Part shown: piece by piece, positions 15,436-31,004 of the stretch | Numbering within the stretch: position 1 is the first letter of the stretch | Layout: every line of letters starts with the position of its first letter | Assembly: GCA_012267605.1 (NCBI GenBank) | Contig: JAAXGF010000054.1 | Span: 1-31,044 of the forward strand | DNA length: 31,044 nucleotides | Direction of reading: 5' to 3' | Source: Alphaproteobacteria bacterium | GTDB lineage: Bacteria > Pseudomonadota > Alphaproteobacteria > JAAXGF01 | Program-made: the position numbers and the translations under genes | Notes under the pieces: model-generated | Databases searched by the model: none | Seen by the model: only the letters and a program-made list of their open reading frames with translations | Told to the model about the DNA's origin: nothing

Positions 15436-16617
15436 ATGCGGATCATAGACCGGTACATCATAAAATCGATCCTTGTTTATGGGTTCACCATGACATGTAT
15501 CGCAGTGTTCGCGCTTCTCCTGGAACGGTTGTTGCGACTGCTCAACCTGGCTGCGAATCCCGATAAAGTAATGATTTACGTATCCCAAATGCTGGTAACC
15601 CTGATCCCACATTATTTAGCGATTGCCCTGCCTGCGGCGTTTTTTTTGGCTGTACTATTGACCTATGGCCGGCTGCAAAGGAACAACGAAATTGCCGTGC
15701 TGACCGGGTCGGGTATTGGCCTTCAACGTCTGATGGCACCAGTGGTCGTATTCGGAATCGTGCTTATGATTATCGCTGCGTATGTCGCCAGTTATTTACA
15801 GCCCCTAGGGCGCTACGCTTACCGGGCGCTCGTCCACACCGTCGAACATGCTTCGTTGAGTGCTGCACTTCGCGAAGGCACTTTTGTTCACGCTGGGGGA
15901 CTAACGTTCTTCGCGGATCGCTTCGCGGTCGACAGCGGATTGTTATCGCACGTGTTCGTTCACGAAATTTCCGGCGATATCTCCTTCGCGACGACAGCGG
16001 CAAAGGGTGTTTTGTTTGGTGCCTCTGATGAATCGGGATCAACCCTTTTACTGGGCGATGGTCTGCGGGTGGGAGTGGCTGCTGACGGTGGCGTTACCGA
16101 TCACGTTCAATTCACCAAATTCAGATGGTCCATCGAACCCGATGGCCAAACTACGTTTCGTTCTCGAGGCAAAGACGAACGGGAACTTACCGTACCAGAA
16201 CTCTGGCACGCGATTGTCGATCCACCGGGCGTGGTTACTTCCGATCGGGTCAGAGCCGAATTTCATTCACGCCTGGCTCGATCCTTGGCGATCGTAATTT
16301 TGCCACTGCTCGCGATCCCGTTGGCAATGTACGGGGGCCGCGGCCGTCAATCTCCGGGCGTTATTAGTGGCGTGATCATTCTCGTTGTATTCGAGGAGGC
16401 ATTGCGATTTGGCGAATCACTCACCGCCTTCGGTGAAGTGTCGCCATGGTTTGGCATATGGCTACCGGTCGGCGTGTTGGCGGTGCTCGGGGCCTATTTA
16501 TCCTTTGAAACTGTTTTTACCGTGCGCAATCAACCGTTCGATCGCGGCTGGTGGGAATTGGGCCGATTTATTTCCGGTATCGGTAAATCTGTTAAGGCGA
16601 TGCGTGGTACGTCATGA
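15436..16617 (+). CDS. LptF/LptG-family permease (LptF-like paralog)
   Basis: IIDRYI, 3 TM + periplasmic jellyroll region + 3 TM, RLQRNNEIAVL.SGI, LREGTF, AEFHSRLA, PLA. Confidence 0.88.
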   Translation: MRIIDRYIIKSILVYGFTMTCIAVFALLLERLLRLLNLAANPDKVMIYVSQMLVTLIPHYLAIALPAAFFLAVLLTYGRLQRNNEIAVLTGSGIGLQRLMAPVVVFGIVLMIIAAYVASYLQPLGRYAYRALVHTVEHASLSAALREGTFVHAGGLTFFADRFAVDSGLLSHVFVHEISGDISFATTAAKGVLFGASDESGSTLLLGDGLRVGVAADGGVTDHVQFTKFRWSIEPDGQTTFRSRGKDERELTVPELWHAIVDPPGVVTSDRVRAEFHSRLARSLAIVILPLLAIPLAMYGGRGRQSPGVISGVIILVVFEEALRFGESLTAFGEVSPWFGIWLPVGVLAVLGAYLSFETVFTVRNQPFDRGWWELGRFISGIGKSVKAMRGTS

Positions 16618-28202: not shown

Positions 28203-29345
28203 CTAGAAAGCGTATTGCCAGCCGAGCGTGATGATTACTTCGCGGGTCATTTGCGGACCGTTCAGGTTCTCGTACATCGGCGCGCCGATCTCGAGAGCAA
28301 GACGTTGACCGCGAATCGCTCCACTCTGGCCCATGAAGTTGAGCCCACCGTGGATGAATACGCGCTCGCCGCCGTAATTATCGGGGTCGGCAGTTTGTAT
28401 TGGAGCACGAATTTGGTCATCCTCACCGTCGATGCGGCCTTCGGTCTCGAAGGCCAAGCGAAGCGATGAGCTCATCCACGGAAACCACGAGTATTGACCC
28501 CACGCCGTTACTCTATGGATGTCGCCGAAGTTGTAGCCCTCGTCGTTGTCCTCGGTGCGAATCTCGCTCGTCCATTGGGCGCCCCAGGTCCAGTCTTCGT
28601 ATTTTCCGTTGTAGGTTAGGCCTGGATGCAGGTCGAAACTTCCTGAGCCGCTTTGCATGGCGTAGGGCACGCGAAGCGTTGGCGCCGTATTGTGGGGGGC
28701 GAGGACGCGCGCCTCATTTTCGATGTCAGCCGTCGGCAGCCCCACCACAGCGTTGAAGTGAATTTTGTGTGTGCCATCGTTATACAGCTTGATCAGACCG
28801 CCGATCTTGGTATTGGCAAAACCTTTCGTCACGGTCGTAAATGTTCCTAGTCGGTTGGTGCCGGCCCCACCCTGGAACGTAATGTGGTCCATCTCTTTTC
28901 GCACGTACATTCCCATGGCCATTAGGGTCAGCCAATTAGTCGGTGCGTACATGGCGCCGAACATGTGCATTTCCATGTTCATGTCTGTTGGAACAACCCG
29001 GAAGGTCGCTGGCGGAGCATTTGGGTTGGCCACATTTGCCGCGATGAAATCTGGTGAAACCTCTTCGCGTCCTATTTGGTTCCTGCCCATGTCCATGAAC
29101 ATGTAACGGTAAGACAGCATAAGCTCGCCTTCACCGTGCATGTGGTCACCCATCACGCCGATTGGCGCATGGCCAGCCGCGTTGAGTTTGCCGAGTCCGC
29201 CTCGAGTGAATTTAACGCCGAAATAGCGCGGCACATCACTATCGTCGCCGCCATGATCTCCGTCGGCATAAACCATCGTGGGCAACGAAATAGTTACCGC
29301 GGCGCAAACAGCAAGGATTGCGAACCAAGTTCTAGAAGTCTTCAT
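28203..29345 (-). CDS. Outer-membrane beta-barrel 'transporter'-type protein with His/Met-rich N-terminal region (candidate copper/metal uptake)
   Basis: Signal peptide ending VYA, HAPIGVMGDHMHGEGE, YRYMFMDM, MNMEMHMFGAMY, C-terminal LGWQYAF beta-signal; strong SD GAGGAGG at 29360-29354. Confidence 0.72.
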   Translation of the reverse strand: MKTSRTWFAILAVCAAVTISLPTMVYADGDHGGDDSDVPRYFGVKFTRGGLGKLNAAGHAPIGVMGDHMHGEGELMLSYRYMFMDMGRNQIGREEVSPDFIAANVANPNAPPATFRVVPTDMNMEMHMFGAMYAPTNWLTLMAMGMYVRKEMDHITFQGGAGTNRLGTFTTVTKGFANTKIGGLIKLYNDGTHKIHFNAVVGLPTADIENEARVLAPHNTAPTLRVPYAMQSGSGSFDLHPGLTYNGKYEDWTWGAQWTSEIRTEDNDEGYNFGDIHRVTAWGQYSWFPWMSSSLRLAFETEGRIDGEDDQIRAPIQTADPDNYGGERVFIHGGLNFMGQSGAIRGQRLALEIGAPMYENLNGPQMTREVIITLGWQYAF

Positions 29346-29659
29346 AATTTCATCCTCCTCGCAGCGATCCGCCCCGCTGTGAAAAGAGTTGCGGATCGAG
29401 CTAGATCGAAACCAAAATATCCGTTTGAGCGATGAGACACGGGCGTCCCCGCCCGCTTAGGTCGGGTAGGCGAAAACTGAGCAGAATCTTTCCCGCATCG
29501 CGATGACCGTGGTCATTCACGTCGATCTCAGAACTATTATTTGAAAGTTCTGGAAACGTTTGAACCTAACGACCCCGGGCGTCCCCAATTCCCCAAACGA
29601 CCCCCGCGGTCAGCTATGCCGCACACAGCAACACAACCTGAGCCAACAGGGGCGTAAGA

Positions 29660-30076
29660 TTAATTTGTTAAGTTTCGGGGCGGTGCTCTGGCTCGAAAGG
29701 GGCGGTGCTCGGTCTGCGAAAATCCGCCTTCATAAAGCTCCATGTACGCCGCCAACTCGACCAAGATGGGAATCTTGAACAGGACGACGTTTGCCGGAAT
29801 GATCTTTCCGACCGGGTGGAGGGAGAAGCAGATCGGGCAGTGAGGGCACGACCAGTCTTCCGAGTCCGGTACCTCGGAGCCGATGCGCAGCGGTACGAAT
29901 TCGATACCGTGGGATGAGCATATCGGAACCAGGATTTCTTGACCCATGCCAGCCGCGGGAGCAGCGCGTGCCGGCTGGAAAACCAAGGGAACGACAAACT
30001 GCGTGAGCAGCGCAGCGATCGCTAGCCAAGTGGCGGCGGGCCGTACCCTCTTTCTATGCGGTCGAAAGCCAAACAC
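29660..30076 (-). CDS. DUF2946-family (CruR-like) leader protein with TM segment, CxxC and C-terminal RAPP
   Basis: GTG 30076 start assumed. AATWLAIAALLTQFVVPLVF (TM), PICSSHG, CPHCPIC, ending FRARAPPRNLTN*. Confidence 0.8.
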   Translation of the reverse strand: MFGFRPHRKRVRPAATWLAIAALLTQFVVPLVFQPARAAPAAGMGQEILVPICSSHGIEFVPLRIGSEVPDSEDWSCPHCPICFSLHPVGKIIPANVVLFKIPILVELAAYMELYEGGFSQTEHRPFRARAPPRNLTN

Positions 30077-30276
30077 CTTCGATTTGGTGCCTCCGTTTCG
30101 GCGGAATGACCGATTCACTCCAGCGTAGGGGCGCGTTTGTATCACAGGAGCACCAGGACGCAAAATGGATCTGATTGGTCGTGCCAACCTCCGCCATTCG
30201 ACCCGCGTCATCATGGCCCACCAATTTCTTTCCCTAAGATGTCGGGGGCTCTGGGCTTACTCGATCAAATTGATAA

Positions 30277-30933
30277 TCATGGTAAATGCGGACAAGGTTT
30301 GTTTTCGAATGACTCGGAAAAACAGTCCTTTAAGGCCGCGTCAACCTCGTCCATCGAAACCTGGATGCCGAGTTCGTGTAAGGAGGTAACTCCGTGATCG
30401 CGGATGCCGCAGGGGATTATCCCCCCATAGGCCGATAGGTCCGGGTTCACGTTCAGCGAGGCACCGTGGTAACTCACCCAATGGCGCAGGCGCACGCCGA
30501 TTGCCCCAATTTTGTCCTCACGTCCGTCGCGGCGTACGACCCACACGCCAACTCGACCTGCACGGAATTCCGCTGAGACGCCGAAGCGAGCCAAGGTGCG
30601 AATTAGCCAGTCCTGGAGACGGTCAACATGTCGGCGTACGTCGCGGCCTCGATGCGATAGGTCGAGGAGGACGTATGCCACGCGTTGGCCGGGGCCGTGA
30701 TAGGTGTAGGCGCCGCCCCGTCCAGTCGGCACAACAGGGATATTCCCGGAGGCCACAAGATCTTCTGGTTGCGCACTCGTACCCGCAGTATAGATGGGCG
30801 GATGTTCCAGCAACCAGACAAGTTCACGCGTTGTGCCGGCACGAATGCCGGCAACGCGGGATTCCATGGTTCGCACAGCCTCATCATACGCCACAGAGTG
30901 TTTGTCGATTTTCCATTCAACACCGTTCGTCAT
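30277..30933 (-). CDS. lipB: Lipoyl(octanoyl) transferase
   Basis: [52 protein letters not shown]. Confidence 0.97.
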
Positions 30934-31004
30934 AAATCTGACGCTAACACACGCGCTTGCGGAAGGAAGGTAGATTTGCTATCCCGAATACGACTGATTC
31001 CCTC

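Follow-up and report, generated by a model that had tools for sequence, protein, structure and literature searches.

CruR (Bp2923) of Bordetella pertussis is the leader of cruR-bfrG-bp2921 (Roy et al. 2022, PMC9426467). Ribosome arrest at its RAPP motif was shown in vitro, the two prolines occupying the P and A sites, and proteomes are depleted of RAPP (PMC12992588). In the model proposed for CruR, copper lifts the arrest, after which Rho can terminate transcription within the 162-nt intergenic region. A second leader, CutF of Rhodobacter capsulatus, heads cutFOG (Ozturk et al. 2023, PMC9973294; bioRxiv 10.1101/2025.02.05.636593). In the CutF model, copper prolongs the arrest, and this melts a nearby stem-loop that masks the next Shine–Dalgarno (SD) sequence. 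Here, we describe an open reading frame (ORF) on contig JAAXGF010000054.1 of an uncultured bacterium that appears to be a leader of the CruR type. It lies on the minus strand upstream of a gene for a small outer-membrane barrel, its putative target. The stretch analysed is 31,044 nt long and is called the window throughout.

The ORF listing contains a minus-strand open frame at 29660–30214 (184 amino acids), which gives 138 amino acids when read from a GTG at 30076. We took this GTG as the start because it and its SD sequence are conserved in an orthologous locus, the upstream ATG at 30214 is not, and RNA contigs from metatranscriptomes begin downstream of that ATG. The orthologue (L047/L048) comes from another metagenome and is 87% identical, with the same neighbours: lipB, leader, barrel and a convergent CDP-alcohol phosphatidyltransferase gene. 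Its leader frame in L047 starts at the GTG equivalent to 30076, and both the GTG and the GGAGG ahead of it are invariant. ATG 30214 was considered as the start of a 184-residue leader and rejected, being unconserved in L047 and upstream of the RNA 5′ boundary at 30113–30119. Residues of the leader are numbered from the GTG, and its features are as follows.

29660–30076, minus strand: leader ORF (upstream ORF, uORF) of 138 amino acids with a GTG start, assigned to the DUF2946 / CruR–CutF family from the ORF listing and Pfam PF11162.
30090–30094, minus strand: GGAGG SD sequence of the leader, 13 nt before the GTG and unchanged between the window and L047/L048.
29963–30076, minus strand: predicted export signal, residues 1–38, with a basic n-region, a hydrophobic core and an A-R-A site (sequence reading and hydropathy).
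29906–29920, minus strand: CSSHG, residues 53–57, of which C53 is invariant in the alignment.
29828–29848, minus strand: CPHCPIC, residues 77–83, in which C80 and C83 are the family's invariant CPxC and C77 is extra.
29678–29689, minus strand: RAPP, residues 130–133, with the codons read directly and the stall position taken from the CruR toeprint (PMC12992588).

The preliminary description of this DNA had named a signal or transmembrane (TM) segment, CSSHG, CPHCPIC and RAPP codons at 29689–29678, five codons before the stop; each was found exactly so. The four RAPP codons are AGA (29689–29687), GCA (29686–29684), CCG (29683–29681) and CCC (29680–29678). They are followed by R-N-L-T-N and a TAA at 29662–29660. 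In residues 5–38, a basic stretch is followed by a hydrophobic core of 20 residues and an A-R-A site; the segment passes the hydropathy filter and looks like a signal peptide or TM segment.

The Pfam check suggested with that description gave a match of the leader to DUF2946 (PF11162) at 34.5 bits against a cut-off of 23.7 (E = 3.8e-8). The match spans profile positions 2–117 of 117 and residues 63–179 of the 184-residue frame, and a whole-genome DUF2946 scan repeated it. NCBIfam returned no match for the leader or the barrel. A word-based homologue search with the leader gave 3 matches only, and an exhaustive HMMER search of 1.8 billion representatives (E up to 0.001) found 34 proteins, 29–46% identical apart from the orthologue. 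The family alignment holds 34 sequences, the window's leader and 33 relatives, and the hydrophobic segment aligns throughout. C53, C80, C83, P132 and P133 are invariant in it and R130 is nearly so, and C80-P-I-C83 of the window falls on the CPxC that the 33 relatives all share. Between C83 and R130 lie 46 residues in the window's leader; the corresponding gap in CruR is 45. Among more than 2000 members of the family, the CxxC–RAPP spacing is 45 ± 2, and an export signal (signal peptide or N-in TM segment) is present in more than 95% of DUF2946/CruR-type members. Five residues follow RAPP in the window's leader, and three in most relatives. The leader precedes a metal-related gene as the first in a same-strand unit, with a long intergenic region between them. 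The earlier reading of a CruR-like CxxC plus RAPP leader is therefore supported at the level of sequence by the family match, the motifs, the 46-residue spacing, the context and a conserved pairing with the barrel gene. All sequence-level features that define such leaders are present, which supports the assignment of the leader as a true member of the CruR-type DUF2946 family. Arrest, copper sensing and the direction of control we infer by homology with the characterized members.

In the genome assembly (3.2 Mb in 411 contigs, 94% complete, G+C 56%), exactly three frames, one of them the window's leader, have RAPP at the C-terminus together with a TM segment and a match to DUF2946. The other two lie in tandem on contig C159 (L002:1423–1860 and L002:2680–3084), in the order uvrB, leader (...RAPPWAINVPG), PCuAC, leader (...RAPPILL), TonB-dependent receptor. 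They are the nearest non-orthologous relatives of the window's leader, at 33–38% identity. The full-length DUF2946 match, the invariant residues and the occurrence of only three such frames in 3.2 Mb argue that the leader is not a chance ORF. As a leader it is ordinary, one more among thousands of family members. The gene after the closest paralogue-like leader (L051) was considered as a further barrel and rejected; its best BLASTP match had an E of 0.84, and the gene is the TonB receptor of C159. A weak partial DUF2946 match (L004; 19 bits, profile positions 23–86) was also seen on contig C70 at 16365–16532, in an open frame of 326 amino acids. The stretch itself is present in coral-reef, sponge and marine metagenome runs.

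The leader and its orthologue differ by 19 amino-acid changes, 9 of them in the linker between CPIC and RAPP, the length of which is the same (no indel). The tail after RAPP reads RNLTN in the window's leader and FTLTI in the orthologue. Such variation in linker and tail is the pattern expected of a spacer plus an arrest motif rather than of a folded domain. It bears on the idea that the ORF encodes not a leader but a small copper-binding protein, exported and stable, that works with the barrel as its periplasmic partner or plug. In favour of that idea, the export signal, the invariant cysteines and the constant adjacency to the barrel could be cited. The mature part is, however, poorly conserved outside the three cysteines and RAPP (mean column identity 25%), and the tail that follows RAPP varies freely. 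Ordinary proteins strongly avoid RAPP, leaders of this family also stand before unrelated proteins, and CruR is undetectable as a protein, acting only as a translated uORF. We consider a stable protein highly improbable.

At the nucleotide level, residues 14–43 (the signal-peptide core; 90 nt, 29948–30037, minus strand) show zero change against the orthologue, synonymous changes included. Among codons for identical residues, 19% differ synonymously in the leader, 29% in the barrel gene and 35% in lipB, and the low value in the leader may reflect a constraint at the RNA level. The homologue search also returned a protein of 692 amino acids (P0135). Six separate stretches of it match leader residues 54–82, from just after C53 to the CPxC, which suggests that it is a repeat protein made from the metal-binding module of the leader.

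The gene downstream of the leader has two features of interest.

28203–29345, minus strand: barrel gene, 380 amino acids with a signal peptide and a predicted COG4313/FapF-like fold (AlphaFold2 model; PF13557 sub-threshold).
29354–29360, minus strand: GAGGAGG SD sequence of the barrel gene, invariant against the orthologue and predicted to be partly paired.

The preliminary description had the leader co-oriented upstream of a Met/His barrel, and the two are indeed on the same strand with a gap of 314 nt. The barrel gene is single-copy in the genome and is the last gene ahead of the convergent gene. PF13557 (Phenol_MetA_deg) scores 17.1 bits on it, under the cut-off of 22, and some barrel homologues carry a precomputed PF13557 match. 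A sequence search of the Protein Data Bank (PDB) returned nothing at E up to 10. The AlphaFold2 model has a pLDDT of 84 and a pTM of 0.80. Its best solved match by Foldseek is 4RL8 (Pput2725), with an E of 3.5e-13 and a TM-score by target of 0.75; FapF comes next. The matched chains of both are about 250–300 residues. At 380 amino acids and with no Plug or TonB_dep_Rec Pfam match, the barrel lacks the marks of a TonB-dependent transporter, which has a plug domain and a 22-strand barrel of about 700 amino acids, in keeping with the earlier description of a non-TonB barrel. Judged by the model, the target is a small channel-type outer-membrane barrel.

The barrel family is large, with 3957 proteins at E up to 0.001, and its few named members are called "transporter" or "alpha-amylase". 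These names (homologues P0002, P0013 and P0071 are examples) hide the family in surveys sorted by downstream annotation. Among 37 sequences, down to 38% identity, the invariant Met and His residues are H59, M65, H68, H70, M76, M84 and M86, and further invariant Met residues are M122, M126, M128, M132, M144, M152 and M230. Met-rich clusters that include His are typical ligands of Cu(I), as in CusF, CopB and the Met motifs of CopA. The barrel may conduct or otherwise handle copper. As a candidate TonB-independent copper channel, it is the more interesting half of the pair.

The extra cysteine had been noticed before, and the alignment places it as C77, upstream of the family CPxC, in 4/34 sequences (the window's leader, the orthologue P0122, P0131 and P0150). 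A CxxCxxC arrangement might give a different ligand set, and the leader could then sense another metal, Ag(I), Ni, Co or Zn. Published analyses find that CutF-like leaders are not all copper-specific, and His-only leaders stand before HupE/UreJ. Leaders of the barrel family likewise have very different ligand sets: CPHCPIC in the window, CCGDC, PCDHC and, in L055, a His-rich stretch. We nevertheless regard a metal other than copper as quite unlikely here: the family CPxC pair is unchanged in the window's leader, and the extra cysteine is limited to those four sequences. The invariant cluster of the barrel has residues typical of Cu(I) ligands, and one paralogue in the genome heads PCuAC, a copper chaperone.

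The pairing of leader and barrel was surveyed in 42 loci with barrel homologues from species-representative genomes, in which the barrel was located by tblastn. A leader was defined as a same-strand ORF of 70–260 amino acids ending at most 450 nt upstream of the start of the tblastn match, which is about 50–60 codons inside the barrel gene. It also had to contain a hydrophobic segment (judged by Kyte–Doolittle), a Cys/His pair motif and Pro-Pro in the last 15 residues. A leader-like ORF was found upstream of the barrel in 25 of the 42 loci, and in 0 of 937 other frames of the same loci; a stricter TM criterion gave 9/42 loci. The leader of L005 misses the Cys/His filter, yet it scores 46 bits on DUF2946. 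DUF2946 matched 5 of the 6 proteobacterial leaders scanned, above the cut-off in L005 and L006 and below it in L008, L009 and L011.

By record titles, the carriers include Pseudomonadota, Verrucomicrobiota, Bacteroidota (Cyclobacteriaceae and Leeuwenhoekiella), Thermodesulfobacteriota, a Longimicrobiales metagenome-assembled genome (MAG) and a MAG labelled Spirochaetales. The four leaders scanned from other phyla (Verrucomicrobiales, Thermodesulfobacteriota, Leeuwenhoekiella) gave no Pfam match; they share the anatomy and end in ...HPPR, ...PPPR or ...SPP.... In a gammaproteobacterial example, the neighbourhood is unrelated, and a gap of 82 nt separates the barrel from a His-rich leader ending in ...PRAPPTYS. 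The barrel is patchy, occurring in 10 of 61 genomes (this one and 60 relatives), and the genomes of the relatives gave no additional orthologous intergenic regions. Because the pairing recurs patchily and in unrelated contexts, we read leader and barrel as a self-contained module of two genes that comes and goes. None of the loci examined has an efflux pump or oxidase gene beside the barrel.

The preliminary description had called the target new. This stands when the comparison is with BfrG and with what the papers say in their text. The downstream classes in the main texts of the CruR, CutF and Fujiwara papers are TonB receptors, PepSY_TM, ScoC, PCuAC, YcnI, CopC, MbnPH, AhpC, RND components, CusF, HupE/UreJ, NosZ/NosR, DsbA and thioredoxins, and a COG4313-type barrel is not among them. 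The CruR and CutF papers, with a small part of their supplements, do not mention PF13557 or Phenol_MetA_deg, and a search for literature linking PF13557 or COG4313 to copper found nothing relevant. The claim does not extend to the source data of Fujiwara et al. 2025 (PMC12992588), which hold 31 RAPP uORFs upstream of "alpha-amylase" and 8 AAPP controls (15-fold, adjusted p 6.8e-13), with a signal peptide in 28/31. Two of these have downstream genes of 1143 and 1125 nt after gaps of 288 and 310 nt, sizes that agree with the present pair, and the ligand set of the example leaders is C-Q-H / HH / C-P-F, not CPHCPIC. The class is a table row in the source data and is unnamed in the main text as searched. 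Since the sources give members of the barrel family that name, the "alpha-amylase" class is very probably the present leader–barrel pair, as judged from name and size. The target is thus under-described rather than new, and published data already contain the pair, wrongly named.

Three further features bear on how the leader could act.

29346–29659, minus strand: intergenic region of 314 nt with conserved blocks, 77% identical to that of the orthologue.
29633–29736, minus strand: rut-like C>G bubble that spans RAPP and the stop codon, with C−G = +0.21 in the 78-nt window 29723–29646.
30113–30119, minus strand: 5′ boundary of the leader RNA contigs and candidate transcript start, at 30119 in runs X10, X19 and X20 and at 30113 in X17.

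We favor the reading that the leader is a CruR-type regulatory leader peptide of the barrel working by Rho attenuation, and we put its probability at roughly 0.55. It is preferred because of the 314-nt intergenic region, the C>G bubble over the stop codon, the absence of SD unmasking in folding models and the presence of a rho gene (contig C4). By homology with CruR, the ribosome translating the leader would arrest once its P-site tRNA, at CCG (29683–29681), carries R-A-P and the A site holds the second Pro codon, CCC (29680–29678). At that point, the CPIC pair would be about 50 residues from the peptidyl-transferase centre and would have just left the exit tunnel. Binding of a metal at CPIC, most likely copper, would alter the duration of the arrest. 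The arrested ribosome would cover the C>G tract around the stop codon and exclude Rho, so that the polymerase crosses the 314 nt and the barrel is made. Plentiful copper would relieve the arrest; the ribosome would then terminate, Rho would load, and transcription would stop ahead of the barrel. The barrel would accordingly serve as a TonB-independent copper-uptake channel under copper scarcity, in one regulon with the leader-controlled PCuAC and TonB receptor.

C>G bubbles were computed with the 78-nt window of Roy et al. Besides the one over the stop codon, a second bubble at 29846–29769 holds the locus maximum of +0.218, a value reached by 0.6% of 78-nt windows (31 kb, both strands). The strongest C>G bubble straddles the uORF stop also in L047 and in both paralogous leaders of C159. 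The sole intrinsic terminator candidate in the intergenic region, at 29496–29481, was set aside as it is unconserved in L047. Four G-runs follow the C-rich tract directly, in a G-quadruplex-like arrangement (G5-N6-G4-N4-G4-N6-G4; 29573–29605, minus strand). The third run is broken (GAGG) in the orthologue, and the minimum-free-energy fold pairs the G-rich tract with the C-rich end of the leader.

Several points weigh against Rho attenuation. The bubble is partly made of the motif's own CCN, GCN and CGN codons, and similar C>G skews occur in most leader loci, which makes the bubble weak evidence. The G-rich tract just after it is predicted to pair with it and could hide a rut site. CutF, also a member of DUF2946, acts in the opposite direction by way of a stem-loop that masks the SD, and arrest, metal binding and termination are argued here by homology with CruR. 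The leader is absent at 9/9 cyanobacterial barrel loci (L013, L017, L021, L022, L027, L029, L030, L032 and L046). It is also absent in G060, a genome of the same class with the best class-level barrel match (locus L061), where the upstream neighbour is divergent. Judging by these loci, the barrel is also used without leader control. Finally, the RNA contigs over 29337–29613 are not joined to the leader contig, which fits a separate start as well as rare read-through.

Control of the CutF sign is one alternative. A metal would prolong the arrest and turn the barrel on at high copper, by freeing the ribosome-binding site or by anti-termination, and the barrel would serve export or detoxification like PcoB/CopB-type proteins. 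CutF is also a DUF2946 protein and requires its signal peptide, and the window's leader has a clear predicted export signal. The SD sequence of the barrel is predicted to be partly paired, with P(unpaired) of 0.46 in the window and 0.20 in L047. In an alternative fold, the pyrimidine run 29381–29388 pairs with GAGGAGG, and the inner helix stays paired through two double changes between the window and L047. The intergenic region as a whole folds more stably than shuffled sequence (z = −2.5). A comparison of the window with L047 (identical to L048 here) shows four double changes in 92 predicted pairs, and with two distinct sequences no fold is supported. Rfam returned no family on 29250–30300, with one sub-threshold hammerhead match on the wrong strand.

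Unmasking was modelled by folding the RNA between a point some 150 nt ahead of the stall site and position +30 relative to the barrel start, with pairing forbidden in a 32-nt footprint around the P-site codon. Masking this footprint does not open the SD sequence in the window (0.46 to 0.39) or in the orthologue (0.20 to 0.22), so CutF-type unmasking is unsupported by the model for this leader, whose gap of 314 nt is not short. Across 26 loci, the mean rise in SD accessibility is 0.045 (Wilcoxon p 0.14; 0.049 against control masks). The SD does open upon masking in L006, L007, L008, L009, L033 and L045; most of these have short intergenic regions and drive the mean rise. The CutF authors themselves state that melting of the stem-loop needs short intergenic regions, and here the stall would be about 320 nt from the SD. 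The motif in the window is CxxC plus RAPP at CruR spacing, not the CxxxC of CutF. No efflux pump or oxidase gene adjoins the barrel in the loci examined, and the paralogous leaders of this genome head uptake-type genes. Control of the CutF sign is, in our view, doubtful.

RNA from the locus was sought in four metatranscriptome runs (X10, X17, X19 and X20) of one study, the assembled contigs of which were placed on the window. Such contigs are unreliable for transcript ends, starts or levels, and only their positions are meaningful. One contig per run covers the leader, in 4/4 runs (29678–30119 twice, 29674–30113 and 29700–30119). These contigs we take to be RNA and not carried-over DNA, because lipB (30210–30944) and the convergent gene have no contigs in the four runs. 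The intergenic region is covered in two runs, at 29337–29613 and 29343–29540, and the barrel gene is covered in pieces; 29614–29673 is uncovered by any contig in the four runs. Contig depth, not a reliable measure, is 34, 9.6, 7.5 and 7.1 over the leader and 2.5–13.5 downstream, where contigs longer than 120 nt have a depth of at most 7. The pattern is compatible with attenuation at the 3′ end of the leader, and assembly breaks or a second transcript start would give it equally. The leader contigs end (29678 twice, 29674 and 29700) at or near the second Pro codon, 29680–29678, the expected A-site codon. Just upstream of the 5′ boundary, a 30-nt block at 30115–30144 (minus strand) is almost invariant against the orthologue. 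The remainder of the lipB–leader spacer is not conserved like this block, which has no resemblance to a sigma-70 promoter.

The broken coverage raises the question of whether the barrel is transcribed mainly from a promoter of its own inside the intergenic region, in which case a real DUF2946 leader would control little or nothing. A sigma-70-like match, TTCAAA-17-AATAAT, lies at 29564–29536. It is the sole hexamer pair of its kind in the region, against 1.6 expected in shuffled sequence, and thus stands at the shuffled level. An inverted repeat, CCAGAAC-N12-GTTCTG (29553–29528, minus strand), overlaps it; the arms are kept in the orthologue and the spacer is variable. The repeat could be an RNA hairpin or an operator, and as an operator it would suit a local promoter. 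Leaderless barrels exist, and the intergenic and barrel contigs are apart from the leader contig in 4/4 runs, with 29614–29673 empty. In L047, however, the hexamers are degraded (TTCAGG and AATCTT) while the repeat arms are kept, and one X10 contig extends to 29613, about 85 nt upstream of the start expected for that promoter. The adjacency of leader and barrel, kept across phyla and contexts, is hard to explain without a functional link. A separate promoter as the main source of barrel transcript is therefore unlikely, and Rho attenuation by a CruR-type leader remains our preferred reading.

A bolder version is that the pair is a horizontally mobile module across phyla encoding an undescribed, TonB-independent and Met-lined copper-uptake channel under arrest-peptide control, with most leader transcripts ending at the arrested ribosome. 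The last part is proposed because the contigs stop at the A-site codon, 29678, in 2/4 runs. We put this forward only tentatively. If true, environmental RNA would give a view of attenuation, or of mRNA cleavage in the A site, at an arrest site that senses metal.

Most of what is known of copper entry through the outer membrane concerns TonB-dependent receptors, OprC and BfrG among them. A Met/His barrel that is small, needs no energy and stands under a copper-sensing leader, in one genome with leader-controlled PCuAC and TonB-receptor genes, would, if the reading holds, constitute a second, passive route of copper uptake, and one common among marine and host-associated bacteria. The wrong gene names "alpha-amylase" and "transporter" also conceal a sizeable group of RAPP leaders. 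The pair further offers a test of CruR-type Rho attenuation with a much longer intergenic region.

Among solved structures, the barrel is closest to Pput2725, the COG4313 channel of Pseudomonas putida F1 (PDB ID: 4RL8), and to FapF, with TM-scores by target of 0.70–0.75. These share the Pfam neighbourhood of PF13557 with the barrel at only 10–13% sequence identity. Both channels are tied to hydrophobic substrates or amyloid secretion, and the portions of their literature that were available describe no Met/His cluster or link to metals. The leader shares a C-terminal R-A-P-P core with the arrest peptides ApdA, ApdP, ApcA and SecM (RAGP), which are likewise small exported proteins upstream of a regulated gene. 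Their arrest has Pro-tRNA in the A site, as would be expected in the window. Unlike the window's leader, they monitor Sec/YidC and carry no metal ligands, and there is no sequence relationship beyond the four-residue core.

CutF is nearer. It belongs to the DUF2946-like superfamily, combines a Sec signal and a Cys motif with a Pro-Pro stalling motif at the C-terminus, and acts in cis on the next gene, as is proposed for the window's leader. It differs in its CxxxC, in the short intergenic stem-loop that masks the cutO SD and in being induced by copper, whereas the window has CxxC–RAPP, a predicted stall about 320 nt from the SD and no modelled SD opening. The closest described system is CruR. 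The window departs from it in the target, a predicted 380-residue COG4313/FapF-like barrel without plug or TonB box and with no PepSY_TM gene, and in the intergenic region (314 nt versus 162). It also has five residues after RAPP versus three, the extra cysteine (CxxCxxC) and a genome of moderate G+C (56%), and the system is known from its sequence alone. The upstream cysteine C53 corresponds to the "semi-conserved" Cys of CruR, where a C51S mutant kept regulation. The two leaders agree in the DUF2946 match, the export signal, the upstream Cys plus CxxC, the RAPP near the C-terminus and the spacing of 45–46 residues. In both, a C>G bubble begins in the 3′ portion of the uORF and extends into the intergenic region, and the gene that follows encodes an outer-membrane protein, the predicted barrel in the case of the window.

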